Part shown: positions 8,189 to 24,585 of the stretch, piece after piece
Numbering within the stretch: the first letter of the stretch is position 1
Layout of the letters: each line of letters begins with the position of its first letter
Assembly (NCBI RefSeq): GCF_030013205.1
Contig: NZ_CP122648.1
Length of the DNA: 64,000 nucleotides
Strand: one strand, 5' to 3'
DNA from: Escherichia coli
GTDB lineage: Bacteria > Pseudomonadota > Gammaproteobacteria > Enterobacterales > Enterobacteriaceae
The notes under the pieces: model-generated
What the model was told of the DNA's origin: nothing
Database searches by the model: none
The model's input: only the letters and a program-made list of their open reading frames with translations
Position numbers and translations under genes: made by a program

Positions 8189-9661
8189 ATGGTACCTGTG
8201 GTCGCGCTTGTCGGGCGCCCTAACGTAGGAAAATCCACGTTATTTAACCGTCTAACTCGCACCCGAGATGCGCTGGTTGCGGATTTCCCGGGTCTGACTC
8301 GTGACCGTAAGTACGGTCGTGCAGAAATTGAAGGCCGTGAGTTTATCTGCATTGATACCGGCGGGATTGATGGCACAGAAGACGGTGTAGAAACTCGCAT
8401 GGCGGAACAGTCGCTGCTGGCGATTGAAGAAGCGGACGTCGTACTGTTTATGGTGGATGCGCGCGCGGGCCTGATGCCGGCGGATGAAGCGATTGCTAAA
8501 CATCTGCGCTCCCGTGAAAAACCGACCTTCCTGGTGGCAAACAAAACTGACGGTCTGGATCCCGATCAGGCAGTGGTTGATTTCTACTCGCTTGGTTTAG
8601 GGGAAATCTACCCGATCGCCGCGTCTCACGGTCGTGGCGTATTAAGTCTGCTGGAGCACGTGCTGCTGCCGTGGATGGAAGATCTCGCACCGCAAGAAGA
8701 AGTCGACGAAGACGCTGAATACTGGGCGCAATTTGAAGCAGAAGAAAACGGCGAAGAAGAAGAGGAAGATGACTTCGACCCGCAAAGTCTGCCGATCAAA
8801 CTGGCGATTGTGGGTCGTCCGAACGTAGGTAAGTCTACACTCACTAACCGTATTCTTGGTGAAGAGCGCGTTGTTGTTTACGACATGCCTGGCACGACGC
8901 GTGACAGCATCTACATTCCAATGGAGCGCGATGGACGTGAGTATGTACTCATTGACACCGCAGGCGTACGTAAACGCGGCAAAATCACCGATGCTGTAGA
9001 GAAATTCTCGGTAATCAAAACGTTGCAGGCCATTGAAGATGCCAACGTGGTGATGTTGGTGATTGATGCGCGCGAAGGTATTTCCGATCAGGATCTCTCC
9101 CTGCTGGGCTTTATTCTCAATAGTGGGCGCTCACTTGTCATTGTGGTGAATAAGTGGGATGGCCTGAGCCAGGAAGTGAAAGAGCAGGTGAAAGAAACGC
9201 TGGACTTCCGTCTGGGCTTTATCGATTTTGCTCGTGTGCATTTTATCTCAGCCTTGCACGGCAGTGGTGTTGGTAATCTGTTTGAATCAGTACGTGAAGC
9301 GTATGACAGCTCCACCCGTCGTGTGGGGACCTCTATGCTGACGCGCATCATGACGATGGCTGTTGAAGATCACCAACCGCCGTTGGTACGCGGTCGTCGT
9401 GTGAAGCTGAAATATGCCCACGCTGGTGGTTATAACCCGCCGATTGTGGTGATTCACGGTAACCAGGTGAAAGACCTGCCTGATTCCTACAAGCGTTACT
9501 TGATGAACTACTTCCGCAAATCGCTGGACGTAATGGGATCGCCGATTCGTATTCAGTTCAAAGAAGGGGAAAACCCGTATGCGAACAAGCGTAATACCCT
9601 GACGCCAACCCAGATGCGCAAGCGTAAGCGCCTGATGAAGCATATCAAGAAAAGTAAGTAA
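8189..9661 (+). CDS. der: ribosome-associated GTPase Der/EngA (two GTPase domains + KH-like domain)
   Basis: Two P-loops ([14 protein letters not shown] and [14 protein letters not shown]); start placed at [17 protein letters not shown] (8189) rather than the upstream ATG at 8150. Confidence 0.92.
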
Positions 9662-9723
9662 TCACTTATCTGGTTTCCCTTTCCACACGGAAAGGGAAAC
9701 CGAATAACGCGCGAGGAGTATTT

Positions 9724-9939
9724 ATGGCACTCAACTGTCCAACCTGCAAAACCCCTCTCGAACGCAATGGCGAGACTGCCCACTGTGCAACTTGCGACAA
9801 AGACTTTACCGTCCAGGCACTTTGCCCTGAGTGTCATCAGCCGTTACAAGTGTTAAAAGCTTGTGGTGCTGTGGATTATTTCTGCCAACATGGGCACGGT
9901 TTAATATCTAAAAAACGCGTTGAATTTGTTATTGCTTAA
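9724..9939 (+). CDS. yfgJ: small zinc-ribbon protein YfgJ
   Basis: 71-aa ORF with CPTC...CATC and CPEC...CQHGH cysteine pairs, adjacent to der. Confidence 0.75.
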   Translation: MALNCPTCKTPLERNGETAHCATCDKDFTVQALCPECHQPLQVLKACGAVDYFCQHGHGLISKKRVEFVIA

Positions 9940-10148
9940 TATCATGTGAATATATTGTTTTATCATTTATATTTAATATGTGAATGGTAAAACAATCTGT
10001 TATTAGTGGAATAACTAATGTAATTGAGTGAAATCACTAATTTAAATAATTAAGAATATATTTATTCTTTATGACATGCCTTTCTGAATAATCAGGGATA
10101 CAATATTAAAGCTTATTTTTGACTGTATCATTGTTACAGGGAAAGTGC

Positions 10149-12326
10149 ATGCTGCGATGGAAACGCTGTATTATGCTAACATTTATCTCTGGTGCTGCTT
10201 TCGCGGCACCAGAGATAAATGTTAAGCAAAACGAATCGTTACCTGATTTAGGTAGCCAGGCAGCACAGCAGGATGAACAAACCAACAAGGGTAAATCGCT
10301 GAAAGAGCGCGGAGCCGATTACGTCATCAACTCCGCCACGCAAGGGTTTGAAAACTTGACCCCTGAGGCGCTGGAATCTCAGGCCAGAAGCTATCTGCAA
10401 AGTCAAATCACCTCAACCGCACAATCTTATATTGAAGACACACTCTCTCCCTACGGTAAGGTCCGTTCGAACCTCTCCATTGGCCAGGACGGCGATCTGG
10501 ATGGTAGTTCCATCGATTATTTTGTTCCCTGGTACGATAATCAAACCACTGTTTATTTCAGTCAATTTTCTGCGCAACGAAAAGAAGATCGTACAATCGG
10601 GAATATTGGTCTTGGGGTAAGACATAATTTTGATGAATGGTTATTGGGCGGAAATATATTTTATGATTATGATTTTACCCGAGGACATCGCCGTTTAGGT
10701 TTAGGCGGCGAAGCGTGGACTGATTATTTAAAATTCTCTGGCAACTATTATCATCCGCTTTCTGACTGGAAAGACTCTGAAGATTTCGACTTTTATGAAG
10801 AACGCCCTGCGCGCGGCTGGGATATTCGTGCCGAAGCCTGGTTACCTTCTTATCCGCAACTGGGGGGCAAAGTTGTCTTCGAGCAATATTACGGCGATGA
10901 AGTCGCCCTTTTTGGTACGGATAATTTGGAGAAAGATCCCTACGCGGTAACACTTGGACTGAATTATCAACCGGTGCCATTACTAACCGTTGGGGCGGAC
11001 TATAAAGCGGGGACCGGAGATAACAGCGATGTCAGCATTAATGCCACTCTTAATTATCAGTTCGGCGTTCCGCTAAAAGATCAATTGGATAGCGATAAAG
11101 TGAAAGCGGCTCACTCGTTGATGGGCAGTCGTCATGATTTTGTTGAGCGTAATAACTTTATTGTTCTGGAATACAAAGAAAAAGATCCGCTTGATGTCAC
11201 CCTGTGGTTAAAAGCGGATGCCACCAACGAGCACCCTGAGTGCGTCATTAAGGACACTCCCGAAGCGGCCGTCGGGCTGGAAAAATGTAAGTGGACCATT
11301 AACGCGCTTATCAACCACCACTACAAAATTGTCGCTGCGTTATGGCAGGCGAAAAACAATGCTGCCCGCACGTTGGTTATGCCGGTTATCAAAGAGAATA
11401 CCCTGACAGAGGGTAACAATAACCACTGGAACCTGGTGCTGCCCGCCTGGCAGTACAGCTCTGACAAAGCCGAACAAGAAAAACTCAATACCTGGCGAGT
11501 ACGTCTGGCACTGGAAGATGAAAAGGGCAACCGACAGAACTCTGGCGTGGTGGAAATCACCGTTCAGCAGGACCGTAAAATAGAGTTGATTGTTAATAAC
11601 ATCGCGAACGTGCCGGAAGAGAACAACCACAGCCACGAAGCCAGCGCTCAGGCAGATGGCGTTGATGGTGTGGTGATGGATCTCGATGTAACCGACAGCT
11701 TTGGCGATAACACCGACCGCAATGGCGATGCGCTGCCGGAAGATAACCTCACGCCGCAGCTTTACGACGCGCAGGACAAACGAGTGACGTTAACCAACAA
11801 GCCTTGCTCGACCGACAACCCCTGCGTTTTTATCGCTAAACAAGATAAAGAAAAGGGCACTGTCACCCTCTCCAGTACCTTACCCGGCACCTATCGCTGG
11901 AAAGCAAAAGCTGCGCCCTACGACGACAGTAACTATGTGGATGTCACTTTCCTCGGGGCAGAAATTGGTGGGCTAAATGCATTTATCTATCGTGTGGGGG
12001 CGGCTAAACCCAGCAACCTGATAGGTAAAGATAAAGAACCGCTGCCGCTCAACAACACTTATCGATTTGTTTTGTGGCGTGACAGCAATAAAGACGGTGT
12101 CTTCCAGCAGGTCGAAAAACTGACTGACGAAGAGATGGCGCAGTACGACTACAAGTGGGAATTTACCGGCAAGAGCATCAATGGTGAAGTGGGTGCACAG
12201 GCGAACACTTCCAATGAGGACATTGTGATTCCGGCCACTAACCGCGAAGCAGCGCAAACCTATGGCGCACAAGCGGGAGATGGCTTGCAGGGATACGGTT
12301 TACGCGTGCTGTATACCAAAAAATAA
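10149..12326 (+). CDS. sinH: intimin/invasin-family inverse autotransporter adhesin (SinH-like)
   Basis: Signal peptide MLRWKRCIMLTFISGAAFA; beta-barrel region with the typical alternating aromatic pattern of the intimin/invasin family; AT-rich upstream region; locus between yfgJ and xseA matches the Salmonella CS54/sinH position as recalled. Confidence 0.7.
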   Translation: MLRWKRCIMLTFISGAAFAAPEINVKQNESLPDLGSQAAQQDEQTNKGKSLKERGADYVINSATQGFENLTPEALESQARSYLQSQITSTAQSYIEDTLSPYGKVRSNLSIGQDGDLDGSSIDYFVPWYDNQTTVYFSQFSAQRKEDRTIGNIGLGVRHNFDEWLLGGNIFYDYDFTRGHRRLGLGGEAWTDYLKFSGNYYHPLSDWKDSEDFDFYEERPARGWDIRAEAWLPSYPQLGGKVVFEQYYGDEVALFGTDNLEKDPYAVTLGLNYQPVPLLTVGADYKAGTGDNSDVSINATLNYQFGVPLKDQLDSDKVKAAHSLMGSRHDFVERNNFIVLEYKEKDPLDVTLWLKADATNEHPECVIKDTPEAAVGLEKCKWTINALINHHYKIVAALWQAKNNAARTLVMPVIKENTLTEGNNNHWNLVLPAWQYSSDKAEQEKLNTWRVRLALEDEKGNRQNSGVVEITVQQDRKIELIVNNIANVPEENNHSHEASAQADGVDGVVMDLDVTDSFGDNTDRNGDALPEDNLTPQLYDAQDKRVTLTNKPCSTDNPCVFIAKQDKEKGTVTLSSTLPGTYRWKAKAAPYDDSNYVDVTFLGAEIGGLNAFIYRVGAAKPSNLIGKDKEPLPLNNTYRFVLWRDSNKDGVFQQVEKLTDEEMAQYDYKWEFTGKSINGEVGAQANTSNEDIVIPATNREAAQTYGAQAGDGLQGYGLRVLYTKK

Positions 12327-12380
12327 GATTGGCGTAAGGCCAGTCGGCCAGTCGCTGAAGGTTCATTAAGGAGAGCATCA

Positions 12381-13358
12381 ATGAAGCAGGATAAAAGACG
12401 CGGTCTGACCCGGATCGCATTGGCGCTGGCACTGGCAGGTTATTGTGTGGCACCTGTGGCACTGGCGGAAGAAAGCGCCTGGGTCGACAGCGGCGAAACC
12501 AATATTTTCCAGGGAACCATTCCGTGGCTCTATTCGGAAGGGGGAAGCGCTACGACAGATGCCGACCATGTAACGTTGACTTCTGATCTAAAAGGCGCTC
12601 GCCCGACAGGTAGTGAAACGGACAAGCGTCTTTACTCGGGTGATAAATTAACCGTAAGTTGGGAAATTGGTGATACCGAAGGCGACGTGGATCTTGGGGG
12701 ATTGGGCGATAACGCAAAGACTATCGATACTATCCGCTGGATGAGCTACAAGGACGCTCAGGGTAACGATCCAAAAGAGCTGGTAACGAAGGTGACCAGT
12801 TACACCCTTACCGATGCCGACCGTGGTCGTTATATCGGTATTGAAATTACGCCAACCACGCAGACCGGTACGCCAAACGTCGGGAATGCGCTGCATCTTT
12901 ATGACATTTCCACTGCCAGCGGCGGCGGAAGCGACAGCGACAACGTTGCGCCAGGGCCGGTGGTTAACCAGAACCTGAAAGTCGCCATCTTTGTTGATGG
13001 TACCAGTATCAACCTTATCAACGGCAGCACGCCAATCGAACTTGGCAAAACCTACGTGGCCAAACTGTACTCGGATGAGAACAAAAACGGCAAGTTTGAT
13101 GCGGGTACCGATGCTGACGTTACCGCCAATTATGACTTCCGTTGGGTACTTTCTGGCAGCAGCCAGCAGCTCGGCACCTCGGGTGGTATCGTTAACTCAA
13201 GCTTCGATAATAACAATCTGGTCATCCCTGCGACCAACGAAGACGCCAGAACCAACCTTAACGGCCCTGCGCGCGATGGTAAAGAAGCTCTTACCATCCC
13301 GACCAACGGCGACGGGGTACAGGGGTACAAACTTCACATTATTTACAAACACAAATAA
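12381..13358 (+). CDS. secreted SinI-like protein sharing domains with both neighbours
   Basis: Signal peptide ending VALA-EESAW; C-terminus (GVQGYKLHIIYKHK) parallels the SinH-like C-terminus (GLQGYGLRVLYTKK); N-terminus parallels the mature N-terminus of the downstream giant protein. Confidence 0.6.
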   Translation: MKQDKRRGLTRIALALALAGYCVAPVALAEESAWVDSGETNIFQGTIPWLYSEGGSATTDADHVTLTSDLKGARPTGSETDKRLYSGDKLTVSWEIGDTEGDVDLGGLGDNAKTIDTIRWMSYKDAQGNDPKELVTKVTSYTLTDADRGRYIGIEITPTTQTGTPNVGNALHLYDISTASGGGSDSDNVAPGPVVNQNLKVAIFVDGTSINLINGSTPIELGKTYVAKLYSDENKNGKFDAGTDADVTANYDFRWVLSGSSQQLGTSGGIVNSSFDNNNLVIPATNEDARTNLNGPARDGKEALTIPTNGDGVQGYKLHIIYKHK

Positions 13359-13478
13359 CGCGTACTCAGCAGCATTCCCGCAAGGGAATGCTGTTTCCGC
13401 ATATTTTGCTTAATCCCGGATTAAGCAAAATATGTTGATGCGACAAGCGTCCGTTTAACAACCGGTGGAGTTTCTGTC

Positions 13479-16400
13479 ATGTCCCTGACCCTGAATAAAA
13501 TCCTTGTGTTATGCGCATTGCTGATAAGCGCAATGCTGCCTGGGTGGTCATGGGCAGAATCTGCATGGCAAGACTCTTCAGATACGGTCGGCGAATTTAA
13601 CGGTACCGTGCCCACCGCCGACAGTGCCAGCATACCCGTCTACCAGGGCAGTGTCTTTCTGGATCCTGCAAAGACGCATGAGGTAGCGTTTACCGCTAAA
13701 CCGAGTGAATTCAGCGCGGATATTAGCGTCTCTAAATTGCTCGTCACCAATCCGCAAGACAGAGAAGGCGATATCATTTCCACCCCACGTTGGGAAAACC
13801 AAACGCCACCGACAGTATCTTTAGTTTGGGCGGATGCCGCGACGCCGGACACCTTACTGGACCCACAGCCAGTCGCAGATCGCTCGTTTTGCGCTCAGGG
13901 ACTTGCCGGGCGTTCGCTGGTCGCCTGGGCGCAGCCTGATCCCCAACAGACCATGCCGCTGTTATATTTACTCACCTCGACGGGCTATCCCTATGAAAGT
14001 GTTCTGACGCTCGCCGATCAGAAAGTGACGCTGAAGATTGCGCCCGCGCAGGGTGACCTTATTTCCGTCAGCGCCGCGGGCTATGACGAATCCTCCGGTG
14101 CGGCGAAAACGACGGTTGGCGGCAGTATCACGTTAACGGTCACCACCAAAGATTGCGTCGGTAATGTTGTGGGGAATATTCCTTTTGTTATCAAACGCAA
14201 AGATGCTGAAAACCGCCAGGGTGTGGTGAACAATACTGCGCCGGTAAAACTGGGCACGACCGAATTAACCACCACCGCGACGGAATATCGTGGTACTACC
14301 GATGCGAATGGTGTTGCCACGGTTACGGTCACCCAGGCCAACGGCCCTGGTGTAAAAACGCCGTTGGTCGCGAGCCTTGCGGGTATTGCTCAGGCCAGTG
14401 AAACGGCAGTGATCTTTACCGTCCTCACCAGCCCGGATGTCCCGCAGGCTACAATGTGGGGTCATATGCCCGATACGCTGAAGGCCCGTGATTACACTTT
14501 TAGTCGACCAAAACTGGCGGCGGAAGTCGATAATGAAGACGGTACGGTTAACGATCACAATGAAACCTGGTCCACCTTTACCTGGAGCGGCGCGGATAAA
14601 CATTGCGACATTTTGCCCGGAATGCGTCAGTTCGGTGCGCTGGCGACGGTGGTGCCAACGTCAGTGCAGGATGTGGCTGGTTGGCCGATGCAGGGTAATT
14701 TCTACTGGTCATCACTGGCGGGGATGAGTGGCCAGCACCATGCGGCGGATGTTTCGAACCGCAGCGAAGCGCAAAAACCGGACGATACGACGTTTATTGT
14801 GAGCTGTGTCGATAAAGAAGCGCCCGATGTTGAACCGAAGCTGGTACTGACGCCGGGCAGTTATGATTCGACGATAAAAGCGATGAAAGTAAAGGTGGGG
14901 GAAGAGGCTTCTTTACGCCTGACGATTACCGATAGCAAGAACAACGATCAGCCGCTGGCGTACTACTACTTTTCGCTGCATCTGGATGACGGCGTTAACC
15001 GTAAGAATCAAACTGACACCGCGTGGCAGGCGAATCCGGTACAAATAGCGGGCGGCAGTAATGTCCATCAGGTTGACGCGCATACCTATGAAGGGATCAC
15101 TGATGCTAACGGAGAGGCCTCTCTGACGCTGACCCAGCCAGGCGGTGTGGGGGTGAAAACTCACATCACCGCGAGAATGCGCAGCGATTTTACCGCCTCG
15201 GATGAGAAAGACGTTATTTTTACGGTGATCACCAGCCCTGATTCCGACAAAGCGCGGATGTGGGGACATATGTTGGGCATTATTGAAGCGAATAATATCT
15301 TTAAACGCCCACGGCTGGCGGATGAAACCGACAACGAACTGGGTGCAGTGCGGGAAAATAACGAAGACTGGGCGCTGTTTGATCAGAATAGCAGTATGCA
15401 GGCTGAGTGTGGTTTAGGTCATATTCCGAGCCAAAGCTCATTGCACAGTTTGTTTGCCGCACATCCAGCCAATGTCATCGGCACCGAATATGGCTGGCCA
15501 ACGTTGCAAAAAGCGTATCTTAGTGCGGTGGAAGAGACGTCGCACGCGTCGGTGAACCTGGCCACGGGCAACATCGACACCTATTCCGGCTTTAAGCAAA
15601 ACTACCTTTCTTGTTCGGGCAATGAGATGGTCGCCCAGATTGCTGCGACCACCGATCATGATGTTTCCACAAGCAGCAGAGCGCAGGCTAAAGTGGGTGA
15701 AACGATTACCATGACGGTACGCACCTTTAATGCCTTGAATAATGCGCCCGTGCCGTATACCGCGTTCACCATCACTAAAGATATGGGGAAAAATCGTCAG
15801 GGGCAGAGCACGGGTTTCGATGATCCAACCCGCGGCGCAATCGAGATGAATGGCACGCTCTACGGAACATCGCAACCGTCTTTAGTCTATGCAGGTACTA
15901 CGGATGCGCAGGGTTTTGCTACTGTGGAAATTAAGCAACCGCAAGGTGTGGGCTTAGCGACGCCGCTGAATATTGCGCCTGTAAACTCCTATATTCCCAA
16001 TACTGTTAATTACAATGTGATTTTCACTACGCTCACCAGTCCGGATGCGGTTGGCGCGCAGATGTGGGGGCATATGGATGAGACGATTACCGTCGATGCA
16101 TTAACCTTTGCCCGACCCCGGCTGGCTGCGGAAGTGTCCAGCCCGGACGGCACATTAACGGAAAATAACGAAGTGTGGTCGCGCGTTAGCCAGGCCAACA
16201 CTTCCAGCACCAGTAAAGGTGGCTGTGGTGCCAATATGCTCCCACGCCGTTCCCAGCTTAACGCGCTCTATGATGCTAACAGCGGTAACGCCGTTCAAAC
16301 GGTACACGGTTGGCCAACGCAGCGTCAGCCCTACTGGAGCAGTTCGCCCGCGGATCAGGTGCCGCATTACTACACCATAGCCCTCAACGATGGCGCGCGG

Positions 16401-19400
16401 ACCGTTGGCGGTAGCACGGCGGTTTATGTCAGTTGCCTGACGACGGCTAACAATCCTGCCAGCAGCATTACGCTGGAAGTGGTGGACCCGGCGCAGTGGA
16501 ACGCGGCAGCAAATGCGGCGAAGCTGAAAAAAGGCGAAACGCTACAGGTGAAGGTGACGGTAAAAGATGCTCAGGGCAATCCATTGGGTGATATGCCTTT
16601 TACGCTGAAGCGTGGCGATGGTTATACCCGATCAAACGAAAAACACATTGCCGGTAGCGGTGATGCGCTGGTTGCGCCGGTTGTGATCAATAGTGGCCTG
16701 GCGGATGAAACTTCGCTCAATGATACCGCCGCAGCATACAGCGCGATGACCGGTAGCGATGGCACTAAAATTCTCACTATTACCCGCCCGGATACCCATG
16801 GCACAAAAACGTCGCTGACCGCCGCGCTCTATTCAGACACAACGAAAAAAGCGACCCTCGATACCATTTTTACCGTTGTCACCAGCCCAGACAGCAATAA
16901 AGCGAAAATGTGGGGGCATATGCCGGAAACGGTGACGGCTGCGGATGGAACGGTCTTTAAACGCCCATTATTGTTGAAAGAGTTATCCAGTACGTCGGGT
17001 CGAACAGCGATTGCAGAAGATAATGAGGACTGGGCGCAATTTACCCAAACTCAGGCGACAAGCACATCCTCTAATGGTTGTGGTAGTGAATATGTTCCCT
17101 CTCAGGCCGGGCTGGAGTCATTGTATGAAGCCAACCGCGGCAATGCGATGAAAACGGTTCAGGGCTGGCCCGTCGCCTCAAGTTACCTTACCAGCACGAC
17201 AGGCAGCAGTAGTCTGGAACAGCGTGACTTAAAGGCCGTCAATCTCAGTTCAGGCACCAGTTCGATAATTCCATCGGCCACAAAAGAACTGCTTACCTGC
17301 CAGACGACGCCGATCGTCAAGGCTAGCCAAATCGTTCTTGAGGCTGCGGACCCCACAAAATTTGACAGTACGAATAATGTTGTCAAAGCGAAAAAAGGGG
17401 AAGAAGTCGTGGTTCGCGTGACCACTAAAGATTCGCAGGGTAACCCGGTGGGAAATACCGCGTTTACGCTTAAACGTAACCTTAGCGTCAATCGGGCAAA
17501 TGCGTCTACAACGGTGACAGCAGGCGCGCTCATCGTGACGGATGCCTGGGGTAACACGCAGAGTAATTTTTCCTCAACAACAGCACTGATTTATGGCGTT
17601 ACCGGCGCAGATGGTACGACAACACTTGCACTGAAACAGGACAATACCACGGGTTTAAAAACCGAACTGACCGCCATGCTGGATACAGATAATAACGTAA
17701 AATCAATGCTTCCGGTGGTCTTTACGGTGATAACCAGCCCCGATACCCCTAAAGCAAAATTCTGGGGGCATATGGCCGAAACGATGACCGGTGCAGGCGG
17801 GCTTATTTATAAAAGACCGTTATTGCAAGATGAGCTTTCCGTTACAACCAGTCGAAGCTCTTTTCAGGAAGATGGAGAGAGCTGGTCACTGTTCTCGCCG
17901 GACCAGTCGAACAACACATCTGTAAATGGTTGCGGTGCAGGATATGTCCCGATTGAAAGTGAGCTGGAGTCACTGTATGCCGATGAAGGTTACGTGCCAA
18001 TACATGACGTTACGGGATGGCCTGTATCACGCGCCTATATCTCCAGTACGGTTGTTGCCTATTACACTCAAACATTTAATTTTAAAGCGGTTTCGTTAAA
18101 AACGGGTGATGGAACGGAGGTCATGTCAAGCAGTCTAGGACTGCTAAGTTGTCGGGCTACCCCAGTGGCGGTGACCAGCCACATTATTGTTGAAGCGAAC
18201 GATGCGACACAATTTGTCAAAGTTGACGAAACCCTCAGCGCACTAAAACGGAAAAAAGGTGACGACGCGGTGATTCGCGTGGTGACAAAAGATGCGCAGG
18301 GAAATGTCGTACCAAATGTTCCGTTTATTCTCAAACGTGAAGGATCGACAAATCGCCAGAATGTACAGTTGTCGAACAGAACTATCACTGTAATCAACGC
18401 TGCGGGAACGTCGGCAAGAGTGGATACTCCATCAATCTCCCTTTATGCGGTGACAGGTGCAGACGGGACAGCCACGTTTACGGTAAAGCAGGATGATTCT
18501 ATAGGCCTGGTAACCAATGTGTACGCTCAGGCCTATCAGTCGAGCCTGGAATCCAACAAATTACCCGTGATGTTTACCGTGATAACCAGCCCGGATACCC
18601 CCCTGGCAAGTTACTGGGGGCATATGGCGGAAACGTTCACTACGCGTTCTGGTACTGCCTTCAAACGCCCCTTACTCTCTGCTGAAAGATCGTCGGGCCA
18701 GTCGTTTATAGAAGACAATGAAGAGTGGGCCGTGTTGAGATCGGCAACAAAGGGGGATATCGATAAAAGCGGGTGCGATGTACATTATCAACCACTGTTA
18801 AGCGAACTACAGGCATTGTACGACGAACACCCAAGTCGTGCGATAAAGACCGATCTGGGTATTCCGGTAAATAGCTACTGGTGGGCTTACGACATGGTGG
18901 CATATGCGGGTAACTGGTACGATCAATATATTTATCTGTTAAATGGATCAAGTGGAAGAGCGTCTTCAACCACCTCGGCATTAATGCTGTGCCTGGTAAA
19001 CCCTCATCCAGAGGCGGCTTCTATTGAAATGACCTCAACGGCGGAGGATGCAACGAAAACGGCCAGCAATGATGGCAGGCCCAGCGCAACAGCGAAGAAG
19101 GGAGAGGTTATCCCGATGACTGTTACGGTGCGAGATAGCGCAGGCAATCCACTGCCAGGTGCCAGCTTTAACCTTAAACGAGGAACTGCGCTGAACCGCG
19201 CTAAAGCTGCGTACGATGCCTCTGCAGATGATCTTACCATCATACCTGTGGAACCTACTGGGGTAACGTCAATCTTGTATGGGGATGGGACGCAGGCTCT
19301 TCTGAAGACAGGGAGCGATGGTAAAGCTACGTTTGAGGTCAGCCAGAATAGCAGTTATGGGCTGTCAACGCCGCTCAGCGCAGAACTCATGCGCGATACC

Positions 19401-21521
19401 TCGAAAAGCGTCACGCTGGATGTCATTTTCACGGTGATAACCAGCCCGGATTCGCCAAAAGCGAAATACTGGGGCCATATGCCGGAAACGTTTACCAGTT
19501 CGGCAGGCGTGACCTTCAAGCGCCCATTACTGGCAGCGGAAGCGACTACGGGGAGCTCGGTAAACGGTAATAATGAGACATGGTCATATATATATAGTAC
19601 TCAAAAAGCGACGGCAGATTGTTCGCTGGAATATCAACCGCGCCTCAGCGAATTGCAGGGGTTATATGACGATCACCCAAACGGGGCGTTAACGAAAGAT
19701 CTGGGGTTGCCGATAGCGTCAGGAAACTGGTGGATTTATGAATTGCTTAACTCCAATGGTAGCTCCTGGTATTATCAGGTCTTTAACCTAAGTACGGGAC
19801 GAGTATCATCCGCACTCTCTCCGGTTGCTCTAATGCTCTGCCTGGCACAGCCTCACTCTAAGCCGTCAAGCGTTACCCTGACTTCAATAGCATTTGATGA
19901 GACGAGAACCGCAAGTAACGGCGGCACACCTTCGGCATCGGCGAAAAAGGGCGAGACAATCCCGTTAGTCGTGACAGTAAAAGACCAAAATGGCAACCTG
20001 GTGAGTGGTGAGGGCGTGACGCTTCAGCGGGCGCAGGCGAAAAGTCGTTCAGGAATTAGGCCCTCATCGTTGGCAGATGATCTTATTGTAGATGTTGTCA
20101 CACCGACAGCAACCCGTATTTCTTTTGCTCAGGATACGGCAAAATGGCTTGGTTTTACCGGCAGTGATGGCACAGTGACGTTCAATGTTACGCAAAACGC
20201 CACCACCGGCCTGGCAACGCCGTTTACGGTCTCGCTTGCACAAGATCCGCAGATCACGTCAAACTTGGACCTGATATTTACCGTGGTCACCAGCCCTGAC
20301 GCCCAGGATGCCGACTACTGGGGTCATATGCCAGAAACGGTGACAGCGGCAAATGGAACCGTCTTTGAACGACCGAAATTGTGGAAGGAGCTGCCATCGA
20401 CCTCCGGGGTAAATAAAACCAATAACAATAATGAGGACTGGCCCTATTTTTCGTCAACCACTAAAGCAAATGCCAGCCTCAGCCCTTGTGAGGAAGCCCG
20501 GCAACCGTTGCTCAGCGATATGAAGTCACTGTATCAACGTTATCCCAATAACACCCTTACGACGGAAACTGGCTGGTCAGTTTATTATTACTGGTGGGCG
20601 CAGGATAAGACTACAGATGGTAAAAATCAGTCGCTCAATATGAAAGATGGCACAACGACATTGAATGGTAATGCCGCTTATCAGGCGTGTCTGGTGTCTG
20701 CGCGCGCGACGGTTTCCAGCGTCACACTGACCTCAACAGCGTTTGATGCTGACAGCCAGGCGGCGAAAGTGAAAAAAGGCGAAGCCATGCCCGTTACCGT
20801 GACGGTGAAAGACAGCGCCGGGAATACGGTACCGAATGTGGAATTTACTTTGAAACGTGGCGATGCATCGCCGCGTAACGCTGGGGCGACGTTGTATGGT
20901 GATGTGGTGGCGATGGACGATCTCATCGTTCAGCCGTTATCTGGTTCGGCTGTTACGCTGAGTGAAAGCGGTAATACCATTAGTGGCATGACAGGCGCGG
21001 ATGGGACGGCAAGTTTTACGCTCCGCCAGGATAATACCCCTGGTTATAAAACGCCACTGACGGTTACTCTGGCTAATTACGCTTCCGCGACAGACACGCT
21101 GGACGCTATTTTTACGGTACCAACCAGCCCGAATGTTTCCTCGGCGCACTTTTGGGGACATATGGCAGACACTGTAGTGGTGAATGGTAAATCGCTACAT
21201 CGACCGTTGTTAACGACAGAATTGCCGTCCGGGGCTAATCCCGTATCCTCACCGATTATTAACTACGAAAACTGGGCTTCTGCACATATCATTGATGCCA
21301 GTAAATGGGATATTGCAAGGCAGTGTGGCAGCATAGAAAATGCACCGACATACAATGAATTAGAGTTGTTGCACACTGTTTTTAATTCACTGGGATGGCC
21401 GTCTTCACCAAGTTTTCCTTATTTGTCCTCTCAACAGTGTGGGATGGACGAAGGCACTGGAGCACAGGATTGTAGTATCACGCTAATGAATAAACCGGGT
21501 CTGGTGACCTGCTTCCAGTAA
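13479..21521 (+). CDS. giant RatA/RatB-like secreted repeat protein (9 tandem ~290-aa repeats)
   Basis: 2680-aa ORF with signal peptide; nine repeats each marked by IFTV(I/V)TSPD..(K/A)..WGHM; repeat-internal opposite-strand ORFs are artefacts. Confidence 0.7.
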
Positions 21522-21526
21522 CCAGC

Positions 21527-21580
21527 ATGGCGCATCTGGCGTGGCCTGGGAGCCAGTGCCGGATGCGATGCTGGCGCATC
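21527..21580. repeat. REP-like extragenic palindrome between the giant adhesin gene and xseA
   Basis: Sequence gccggatgcgatgctggcgcatcttat resembles E. coli REP units. Confidence 0.4.
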
Positions 21581-23118
<1,538 letters not shown>

Positions 23119-24585
23119 ATGCTACGTATCGCTAAAGAAGCTCTGACGTTTGACGACGTTCTCCTCGTTCCTGCTCATTCTACCGTTCTGCCGAATACTG
23201 CTGACCTCAGCACCCAGCTGACGAAAACTATTCGTCTGAATATCCCTATGCTTTCCGCAGCAATGGATACCGTAACGGAAGCGCGCCTGGCTATTGCTCT
23301 GGCTCAGGAAGGCGGTATCGGCTTTATCCACAAAAATATGTCCATTGAACGCCAGGCGGAAGAAGTTCGCCGTGTGAAAAAACACGAATCTGGCGTGGTG
23401 ACTGACCCGCAGACTGTTCTGCCAACCACGACGCTGCGCGAAGTGAAAGAACTGACCGAGCGTAACGGCTTTGCGGGCTACCCGGTCGTTACCGAAGAAA
23501 ACGAACTGGTGGGTATTATCACCGGTCGTGACGTACGTTTTGTTACCGACCTGAGCCAGCCGGTTAGCGTTTACATGACGCCGAAAGAACGTCTGGTCAC
23601 CGTGCGTGAAGGTGAAGCCCGTGAAGTTGTGCTGGCAAAAATGCACGAAAAACGCGTTGAAAAAGCGCTGGTGGTTGATGACGAATTCCACCTGATCGGC
23701 ATGATCACCGTGAAAGATTTCCAGAAAGCAGAACGTAAACCGAACGCCTGTAAAGACGAGCAAGGCCGTCTGCGTGTTGGTGCAGCGGTTGGCGCGGGTG
23801 CGGGTAACGAAGAGCGTGTTGACGCGCTGGTTGCCGCAGGCGTTGACGTTCTGCTGATCGACTCCTCTCACGGTCACTCTGAAGGCGTTCTGCAGCGTAT
23901 CCGTGAAACTCGTGCTAAATATCCGGATCTGCAAATCATCGGCGGCAACGTGGCAACAGCTGCGGGGGCACGCGCTCTGGCAGAAGCTGGTTGCAGCGCG
24001 GTTAAAGTCGGCATTGGCCCTGGCTCTATCTGTACGACTCGTATCGTGACTGGCGTAGGTGTTCCGCAGATCACCGCCGTTGCTGACGCCGTAGAAGCCC
24101 TGGAAGGCACCGGTATTCCGGTTATCGCTGACGGTGGTATCCGTTTCTCAGGCGATATCGCCAAAGCTATCGCCGCAGGTGCAAGCGCGGTAATGGTGGG
24201 TTCCATGCTGGCGGGTACTGAAGAATCTCCGGGTGAAATCGAACTCTACCAGGGCCGTTCTTACAAATCTTACCGTGGGATGGGCTCTCTGGGTGCGATG
24301 TCCAAAGGTTCTTCTGACCGTTACTTCCAGAGCGACAACGCTGCCGACAAACTGGTGCCGGAAGGTATCGAAGGTCGCGTGGCCTATAAAGGTCGCCTGA
24401 AAGAGATCATTCACCAGCAGATGGGCGGCCTGCGCTCCTGTATGGGCCTGACCGGCTGTGGTACTATCGACGAACTGCGTACTAAAGCGGAGTTTGTACG
24501 TATCAGCGGTGCGGGCATTCAGGAAAGCCACGTTCACGACGTGACCATTACTAAAGAGTCCCCGAACTACCGTCTGGGCTCCTGA
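23119..24585 (+). CDS. guaB: IMP dehydrogenase
   Basis: Start chosen at [19 protein letters not shown] (23119), giving 488 aa; CBS pair and catalytic loop [11 protein letters not shown] present. Confidence 0.95.

Follow-up and report, generated by a model that had tools for sequence, protein, structure and literature searches.

The sinH-sinI-ratA adhesin locus between yfgJ and xseA of Escherichia coli, a likely three-gene counterpart of Salmonella CS54 with a shared N-terminal motif and intercistronic hairpins

The window, a 64-kb stretch of an E. coli chromosome, contains an island of three genes inserted between yfgJ and xseA; porcine ETEC/O139:H1 E. coli chromosomes match this region with 100% identity. 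The locus is composed of the following features:

9724–9939: yfgJ, upstream of the island
9940–21580: the island, 11.6 kb, between yfgJ and xseA
9940–10148, plus strand: AT-rich region, presumed promoter or regulatory region
10149–12326, plus strand: sinH, encoding a 725-aa intimin-like inverse autotransporter (type Ve)
12381–13358, plus strand: sinI, encoding a 325-aa SinI-family autotransporter-associated protein
13359–13478, plus strand: intercistronic element between sinI and ratA, containing two conserved RNA hairpins
13479–21521, plus strand: ratA-like gene, encoding 2680 aa
21522–21580: putative REP-like hairpin separating ratA from the convergent xseA; right-hand limit of the island
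21581–22957, minus strand: xseA, downstream of the island and convergent with ratA

The coordinates of the three open reading frames agree with those that RefSeq gives for an identical genome, where 13479–21521 is labeled “adhesion domain-containing protein,” and each protein exceeds the cut-off of a curated NCBI family. Hence, both the three-gene island and the SinH, SinI and RatA-like assignments, which an earlier note had made from the sequence alone, are confirmed. The existence and layout of the locus are already known from the RefSeq annotation and several papers: it has been published as the “ila cluster,” extending from xseA to yfgJ (PMC12928451), and also as the sinH pathogenicity island and the CS54-like island. 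In island-free strains yfgJ and xseA overlap by 4 bp. About one third of complete E. coli genomes (1749 of 5426), ST131 and CFT073 among them, carry sinH, and Salmonella, Citrobacter, Kluyvera, and Pseudocitrobacter have the same cassette at this site. The locus is very likely the E. coli sinH-sinI-ratA adhesin locus, a three-gene counterpart of Salmonella CS54 at yfgJ/xseA.

The island starts with a stretch that had been described as very AT-rich, and it indeed has 23.9% G+C, compared to 50.2% for the window. It contains an imperfect tandem repeat of 22 bp at 9998–10045, and alignment of upstream regions reveals a box, TTAAGAATATATTTAT, at 10050–10065, kept across genera. A scan of 9940–10148 with the sigma-70 consensus yielded zero sites, site counts being not above those in shuffled sequences.

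SinH has the following regions:

about aa 1–19: signal peptide
aa 63–336 (10335–11156): beta-barrel
aa 337–725: Ig-like passenger
aa 619–725 (12003–12323): C-terminal SinI-like domain

SinH matches the equivalog NF033423 with 1483.8 bits (cut-off 999), its residues 1–725 aligning to profile positions 1–730. IAT_beta (PF11924) covers the barrel with E 3.8e-109, and the barrel structures of invasin (PDB 4E1T, E 4e-73) and intimin (4E1S, E 1e-64) match as well; the score against the intimin model NF033627 is below the cut-off (251 bits vs 1400), with the barrel region alone aligned. SinH is thus a type Ve inverse autotransporter whose N-terminal barrel is homologous to those of invasin and intimin, as the earlier note had proposed for the first gene. 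Its orthologue IatB is surface-located and biofilm-forming (PMC6714894), and the Ig-like passenger of IatB/SinH is published to be surface-displayed and to mediate biofilm formation and adhesion. The SinH domains have been described, SinH being a vaccine antigen (PMC9937491), and sinH and sinI are co-transcribed (PMC12525524).

The next gene, sinI, lies directly downstream, 54 bp after sinH, and its product comprises:

about aa 1–29: signal peptide
aa 30–49 (12468–12527): N-terminal motif
about aa 62–178: Ig-like middle domain
aa 190–325: C-terminal domain, homologous to the SinH C-terminus

SinI family membership follows from the match to NF040711 (336.6 bits, cut-off 165); “secreted,” as the protein had also been called, is suggested by the signal peptide alone. 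The C-terminal domain had been claimed to be common to SinI and SinH, and it is: SinI 211–325 aligns with SinH 623–725 at 36% identity (BLASTP, E 4e-13), the NCBIfam models of the two proteins cross-match, and the motifs Y-x-[FY]-[RK]-W, IPATN and DGVQGY occur in both C-domains and are kept across genera. Identity between the SinH and SinI C-domains is 35–52% for every locus combination, with no excess within loci; hence, the duplication is old, exchange is not ongoing, and gene conversion between the two domains is rejected.

The claim of an N-terminal domain common to SinI and the giant protein holds for a short motif, while domain-level homology is weak. Pairwise BLASTP of SinI and Rat N-termini aligns 41 residues including the signal peptides (E 0.005), about 20 of them past the cleavage site, and profile-profile comparison of the families (hhalign) aligns SinI 8–112 with Rat 7–106 (probability 94%, E 1.2e-7); by this comparison the two N-termini share about 80 residues. 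The AlphaFold2 model of SinI has pLDDT 69.6, with aa 1–61 below 50. A sequence search of SinI against PDB gave zero matches, and in the Foldseek search of the model against PDB, E was never below 0.03 and the hits were generic Ig/FnIII sandwiches, which supports no more specific description of the modeled fold than “Ig-like.”

The ratA-like product is built as follows:

about aa 1–26: signal peptide
aa 27–45 (13557–13613): N-terminal motif
to about aa 210: N-domain
aa 214–2654 (14118–21440): nine BIg21 + InvE_AD units

It matches PRK15316/NF011844 end to end (5384.7 bits, cut-off 3870; aa 1–2680 on 1–2683), and scores below the cut-offs of the Salmonella equivalogs, both RatA (NF011843, 2095 vs 3700 bits) and RatB (NF011842, 2235 vs 4079). 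By these scores, it is a paralogue or an orthologue-group relative, neither Salmonella RatA nor RatB; we refer to it as RatA for brevity. Pfam finds nine BIg21 (DUF823) and nine InvE_AD (DUF824) domains in alternation, and so the nine repeats noticed earlier are real, with a period of 268–285 aa rather than approximately 290. WGHM motifs recur at aa 327, 595, 863, 1145, 1429, 1713, 1998, 2281, and 2559, and at the DNA level a 57-nt segment is present nine times with a spacing of 804–855 nt. Aligned by motif anchoring and MAFFT, the units are mutually 24–46% identical in protein; in DNA, their identity is 60–77%. Self-BLASTP of RatA gave the identity match only, or none, and Tandem Repeats Finder reported no long-period array in ratA, as expected with units so divergent. 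Judged from this divergence, the repeats are old.

In principle, repeat collapse or expansion during assembly could have produced a giant nine-repeat ORF as an artefact. Units as divergent as these leave no concern about collapse or expansion and make a read-depth check needless; moreover, 15 or more independent complete genomes carry an identical ORF, and nine units are also present in two other E. coli RatA alleles, 85% and 66% identical in protein. We therefore reject the artefact, which is practically out of the question. One unit matches the “putative invasin” of PDB 5N40 (InvE) with E 1e-23; as each unit is homologous to the C-terminal Ig and adhesion-domain “head” of InvE, RatA looks like a long nine-headed adhesin.

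The feature shared by the two downstream proteins is a motif at the mature N-terminus with the core T-G-x-I/F-x-G-T-x-P, usually preceded by W. SinI and all cargo proteins of the loci examined carry it, and in the six-frame translation of the window it occurs in SinI and RatA only. The motif has two forms, which switch together in SinI and Rat of one locus, although this co-variation amounts to one co-change event in one clade and is statistically weak; the joint change may be a new point. In the AlphaFold2 models of both proteins the motif falls in low-confidence, apparently flexible tails, but the underlying alignments are shallow (23 and 9 sequences), and the low N-terminal pLDDT may reflect only that.

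All 13 loci examined have the inverse autotransporter gene first, then the SinI-like gene and then the cargo gene: four E. coli alleles, Salmonella, Citrobacter, Kluyvera, Pseudocitrobacter, Leminorella, and four more, including two metagenome contigs (for one of the last four, L014, the view covered its two rat-like genes only). Neither a different genomic location of the locus nor a cargo of a type other than BIg21/InvE_AD alters this order, and a distant system with a different cargo still carries the motif in both partner proteins.

Two hairpins are located between sinI and ratA:

13367–13393: hairpin 1, a GC-rich stem followed by UUUCC, terminator-like in appearance
13399–13434: hairpin 2, a 17-bp stem with the conserved core TTTGCTTA/TAAGCAAA

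The intercistronic element folds with a z-score of –6.2. In the nine loci compared, 95% of the cells are paired and compensatory changes occur at 14 pairs, a covariation level reached by none of 500 shuffles. A search of 9000–23500 against Rfam gave no match at the gathering score, the intercistronic region yielding chance hairpin matches only. By attenuating read-through, the hairpins probably reduce the amount of ratA made relative to sinH-sinI, and this covarying double hairpin may be a new point. Another hairpin closes the island on the right (21522–21580, 69.5% G+C, –36.9 kcal/mol, z-score –3.9), and presumably resembles REP elements.

Both SinI and RatA have a Sec signal peptide only and no barrel, and no other secretion genes are found near sinI and ratA. 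We suggest that SinI and RatA would reach, or stay on, the surface via SinH, as ZirS does via ZirT; that the conserved motif at their mature N-termini would be the recognition element; and that the sinI–ratA hairpins would damp read-through, setting ratA output below that of sinH-sinI. This joint mechanism, derived from sequence comparison, is tentative, and we place it slightly short of an even chance. Partner dependence is suggested by the conserved gene order, by the motif in SinI and all cargo, and by the ZirS/ZirT precedent, ZirS secretion requiring ZirT (PMC2270342); a dependence of SinI and Rat proteins on SinH has been proposed already (PMC4943183). The more specific reading, in which a SinH-type “inverse two-partner” system uses the motif for targeting or docking and thereby for either export via SinH or assembly of a non-covalent SinH-SinI-RatA fibre, is doubtful. 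Partner dependence also faces the problem that the barrel pore is filled by the linker of its own passenger, which fits poorly with the export of a 2680-aa protein (PMC4943183).

SinH alone could be a classical inverse-autotransporter adhesin, with SinI and RatA independent of it, periplasmic or using another surface route, SinI being, e.g., an Ig-fold chaperone in the periplasm, and the shared domains being traces of an old duplication. The 35–52% identity of the C-domains, with no within-locus excess, agrees with such a duplication, and colonisation phenotypes in Salmonella were reportedly found by Kingsley et al. in 2003 for sinH, ratB and shdA rather than for sinI or ratA. Moreover, biofilm formation by IatB (SinH) does not need the downstream gene (PMC6714894), which also speaks against SinH dependence as such. 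On the other hand, the three genes keep their order in different genera and at different genomic sites, a 2680-aa multi-head adhesin has no obvious periplasmic use, and both partners retain the motif even in the distant system with other cargo; we regard the independent action of SinH as somewhat unlikely. Alternatively, the proteins could form a non-covalent chain, where a flexible N-terminal tail docks on a domain of the SinH-C/SinI-C type: the tail of SinI would attach to SinH-C and that of RatA to SinI-C, building a surface fibre SinH-SinI-RatA. SinI is chimeric, joining a Rat-like N-terminus to a SinH-like C-terminus, and a role as an adaptor would account for its having one module in common with each neighbour. 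Conservation of the three C-domain motifs across genera is consistent with such docking, as are the non-covalently attached passenger extensions suggested by Tsai et al. for the Yfr4 operon (PMC3008723). Still, the chain is drawn purely from sequence features and leaves the crossing of the outer membrane by SinI and RatA unexplained, so that we consider it quite unlikely.

Apart from the two small conserved features, the N-terminal motif and the hairpins, which may be undescribed, the locus is ordinary. Its medical relevance stems from SinH being a current ExPEC vaccine candidate and from the island's presence in a third of complete E. coli genomes. As the SinI C-terminus is homologous to the domain that serves as the SinH-3 vaccine antigen, anti-SinH-3 antibodies may also recognize SinI, if the docking reading of the motif is true. 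The co-varying motif and the domain sharing provide a concrete handle for mutagenesis, and the covarying hairpins, a testable explanation for unequal expression of sinH-sinI and ratA.

Among known systems, the closest is the “ila cluster”/sinH island of ExPEC (CFT073, BEN2908, ST131), with the same genes, order and insertion site, that is, sinH (iatB)-sinI-ratA between yfgJ and xseA (PMC12928451; PMC6714894). Compared to CFT073, SinH is 97.8% and SinI 96.9% identical, and both RatA proteins have nine units; however, the window carries a different allele, that of porcine ETEC/O139:H1, with RatA only 84.9% identical. The difference is mosaic: aa 1–1300 and 2400–2680 retain at least 89% identity per 100-aa block, while aa 1300–2400 have 61–78%.

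The Salmonella CS54 layout had been named in the earlier note, and a Salmonella enterica contig has the same order at the same site: der, yfgJ, sinH (730 aa), sinI (319 aa), ratA (1865 aa), and ratB (2435 aa). CS54 and the window locus have in common the post-yfgJ position, the sinH-sinI-rat order, the protein families, the N-terminal motif, and the hairpins between sinI and ratA. The likeness does not extend to the full island, given as sinH-sinI-ratA-ratB-shdA (Kingsley et al., 2003, as cited in PMC4943183): the window has a single 2680-aa Rat in place of RatA and RatB, and ratB is missing, as is shdA, whose placement in CS54 is taken from the literature. The ratA stop and the xseA gene are only 59 bp apart, too little space for further genes. 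SinI proteins are about 45% identical between the two loci, and the motif class differs, AE..W...F.GT.P in the window vs LK.G.WQ...I.GT.P in Salmonella.

In ZirTSU of Salmonella, an IAT_beta barrel protein is likewise followed by Sec-dependent, barrel-less Ig-like proteins, and in both systems the partners resemble the passenger of the barrel protein. The SinI middle region matches the ZirU family NF040485 weakly (E 5e-7, 30.1 bits vs the cut-off of 100), and SinI is not a member; as the profile aligns from approximately residue 18 to SinI residue 69, the tail and motif at the N-terminus are seemingly missing from ZirU. Unlike ZirTSU, the cargo in the window is a 2680-aa repeat adhesin, and its dependence on SinH is putative. 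As for type Vb two-partner secretion, no TPS or Omp85/POTRA Pfam domains are found in SinH, SinI, or RatA. Finally, the last Ig domain and the C-terminal adhesion domain of Yersinia pseudotuberculosis InvE, for which the Pfam domain InvE_AD is named, align to one RatA unit, including the TSPD...MWG.M junction; but the InvE head is a single copy covalently linked to its own barrel, while RatA has nine copies and no barrel.

The three-gene locus studied here is already known, and the reading of it in the earlier note, as an island between yfgJ and xseA encoding an inverse autotransporter (SinH), a SinI-like protein and a giant Rat-like protein (RatA), is supported. Two small additions, of which we could not find a mention in the literature as far as checked, are an N-terminal motif in SinI and Rat proteins and a hairpin element between sinI and ratA. 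Window positions 9500-22000 are 100% identical to porcine ETEC and O139:H1 E. coli chromosomes, and RefSeq gene coordinates match the mechanical ORF list of the window.

Features of the locus (window positions; genes from RefSeq annotation)
left flank, upstream of yfgJ: der
9724-9939: yfgJ, zinc-ribbon protein
9998-10045: 22-bp imperfect tandem repeat in the AT-rich region, upstream of the conserved box
10050-10065: box TTAAGAATATATTTAG, kept from E. coli to Salmonella, Citrobacter and Kluyvera (cross-genus alignment)
10149-12326: sinH
12381-13358: sinI, SinI-family autotransporter-associated protein
13479-21521: ratA, giant protein, "adhesion domain-containing protein"
21581-22957, minus strand: xseA

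Island-free strains, including K-12 and CE2050, have a 4-bp overlap between yfgJ and xseA, which makes 9940-21580 the inserted segment; the ORFs and RefSeq genes confirm the three-gene island. With NCBI curated cut-offs, SinH scores 1484 bits against NF033423 (equivalog, cut-off 999 bits), SinI, 337 bits against NF040711 (family, cut-off 165 bits), and the giant protein, 5385 bits against PRK15316 "RatA-like protein" (cut-off 3870 bits; aa 1-2680 on model positions 1-2683); the latter scores under the cut-offs of both models for Salmonella RatA and RatB proper. SinH aa 63-336 form an IAT_beta barrel (Pfam) matching the solved invasin and intimin barrels. The scores above cut-off, and for the intimin/invasin-type autotransporter also the barrel, bear out all three identities proposed earlier.

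In RatA aa 214-2654, Pfam identifies nine copies each of the BIg21 and InvE_AD domains, which strictly alternate, one pair forming a unit. The WGHM motif also occurs nine times, at intervals of 268-285 aa, as does a 57-nt DNA segment of ratA (spacing 804-855 nt, identity 68-77%), so that the previously claimed count of nine giant repeats stands, but their length of ~290 aa gives way to the measured spacing. One unit matches the last Ig domain and adhesion domain of Yersinia InvE (PDB 5N40; E 1e-23). Protein identity among units is 24-46%; nine units are also found in RatA of the E. coli alleles CFT073 and Ecol_867, and eight in a Rat allele of another E. coli, while Rat proteins in other genera span 1858-2716 aa. 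These are old, stable repeats, for which assembly collapse is no worry. Compared to CFT073, RatA is mosaic: identity is 61-78% at aa ~1300-2400 (units 5-8, window 17380-20680) and at least 89% per 100-aa block elsewhere, which suggests recombination or diversifying selection inside the repeat array.

Of 5426 complete E. coli genomes, 1749 carry sinH, in every case on the chromosome, and the species holds several deeply divergent island alleles, SinI and RatA of the window being only about 67% identical to those of Ecol_867. The cassette occupies the yfgJ/xseA site in E. coli, Salmonella, Citrobacter, Kluyvera and Pseudocitrobacter, and a different site in Leminorella. G+C content is 50.9% in the island and 50.2% in the window, and the window ORF list contains no mobility genes within the island segment. 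Identity to K-12 is 96-100% in der until about 9590, but falls to 51-91% in 100-nt windows both in the 5' half of yfgJ (9590-9939) and in the last ~500 nt of xseA (21581-22100), with protein-level differences in the YfgJ N-terminal half and XseA C-terminus; hence, the divergent haplotype reaches past the island proper. Taken together, distribution, G+C content, absence of mobility genes and divergent flanks suggest an old polymorphic locus, swapped via flank recombination, no less than recent acquisition from Salmonella. Disrupted copies are also observed. In E. coli AST85 (NZ_AP043644.1, 2748319-2749557) only 57% of sinH matches, under the annotations "inverse autotransporter beta domain-containing protein" and "adhesion domain-containing protein", suggesting a variant degraded by deletion, and in a Pseudocitrobacter metagenome contig (L011, 7755-9944) sinH is broken into two ORFs.

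The very AT-rich stretch reported before the island is confirmed, with G+C content of 23.9% at 9940-10148 upstream of sinH. A consensus promoter scan of this region yielded no site; box TTAAGAATATATTTAG and the 22-bp repeat may be regulator binding sites. The convergent ratA-xseA gap (21522-21580, G+C 69.5%) is filled by a hairpin of -36.9 kcal/mol, which we take to be similar to REP elements. The 120-nt sinI-ratA gap (13359-13478) has a two-hairpin fold (z-score -6.2). Among nine loci from several genera (the element is listed for the window and also for L004-L006, L008-L012 and L016), 95% of cells are paired and compensatory changes occur in 14 of the 31 pairs, a covariation reached by none of 500 shuffles, with at most 4 compensatory pairs in slid controls. 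As G-U pairs are kept, sense RNA rather than DNA is indicated as the conserved form; these hairpins match no Rfam family. Hairpin 1, followed by UUU(U)CC, resembles a weak intrinsic terminator, suggesting that the element may attenuate read-through into ratA; this fits the co-transcription of sinH with sinI published in PMC12525524 (citing Shea et al., 2022). The hairpins are probably an attenuator or mRNA-stability element setting the ratio of sinH-sinI to ratA.

SinI is chimeric. Within its C-terminal domain, aa 211-325 are 36% identical (E 4e-13) to SinH aa 623-725, the part of SinH known as the "SinH-3" receptor-binding domain, a vaccine antigen (aa 602-724; PMC9937491). This similarity is roughly equal across all combinations of loci, indicating an old duplication rather than gene conversion. 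Pairwise BLASTP of the SinI and RatA N-termini retains only signal peptides and a short motif after them (E 0.005), and profile-profile comparison of the SinI-family and Rat N-terminal alignments gives 94% probability (E 1.2e-7; SinI 8-112, Rat 7-106). From these comparisons, the earlier description of shared domains is right in substance: the C-terminal part holds fully, and the N-terminal part at the level of motif and profile, but homology past the motif is weak. Residues 19-22 of the SinI signal peptide (A-G-Y-C, window 12435-12446) do not vary among 23 homologues drawn from several genera; they are unusual for a signal-peptide core and not a canonical lipobox.

In the motif, W34, T40, G45, P48 and W49 are invariant among SinI homologues, and W30 and N-G-T-x-P, among Rat N-termini. 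Class A (LK.G.WQ....T..I.GT.P) occurs in Salmonella, Citrobacter, Kluyvera, Leminorella and one E. coli allele, and class B (AE..W.....T..F.GT.P), in the window, CFT073, Ecol_867 and Pseudocitrobacter. SinI and Rat proteins of the same locus always carry the same class, a co-variation that amounts to one joint change and is statistically weak, as class B forms a single clade. Six-frame translation of the whole window finds the motif in SinI and RatA only; in AlphaFold2 models, built from shallow alignments, it lies within low-confidence tails (SinI aa 1-61, RatA aa 19-42).

As published, SinH/IatB is a surface-exposed protein that favours biofilm formation (PMC6714894), mutation of sinH leads to attenuation, and mice vaccinated with SinH are protected (PMC12525524, PMC9937491). 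SinI and Rat-like proteins have been proposed to be substrates exported by the SinH barrel (PMC4943183, PMC6714894), or non-covalently attached passenger extensions (PMC3008723); in Salmonella, ZirT is required for ZirS secretion (PMC2270342). Every Rat N-domain relative with retrieved upstream flank lies downstream of genes for an IAT_beta and a SinI-like protein (L014, whose sequence ends too close upstream, was left out). This strict synteny, the shared co-varying motif and the chimeric architecture of SinI are consistent with dependence of SinI and RatA on SinH, without proving it. That SinH acts standalone, without such a partnership, is a reasonable alternative, as IatB, the SinH orthologue, still makes biofilm without the neighbouring gene. 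A distant relative of the system is seen in L015 (GCA_041359215.1, 4656-9242), where the SinI-like and cargo proteins alike keep the core TG.I.GT.P at their mature N-termini. The cargo has a Rat-type N-domain and lacks BIg21/InvE_AD repeats, and the sizes of the three proteins (IAT 760 aa, SinI-like 294 aa, cargo 413 aa) are similar to those published for the Yersinia Yfr4 operon.
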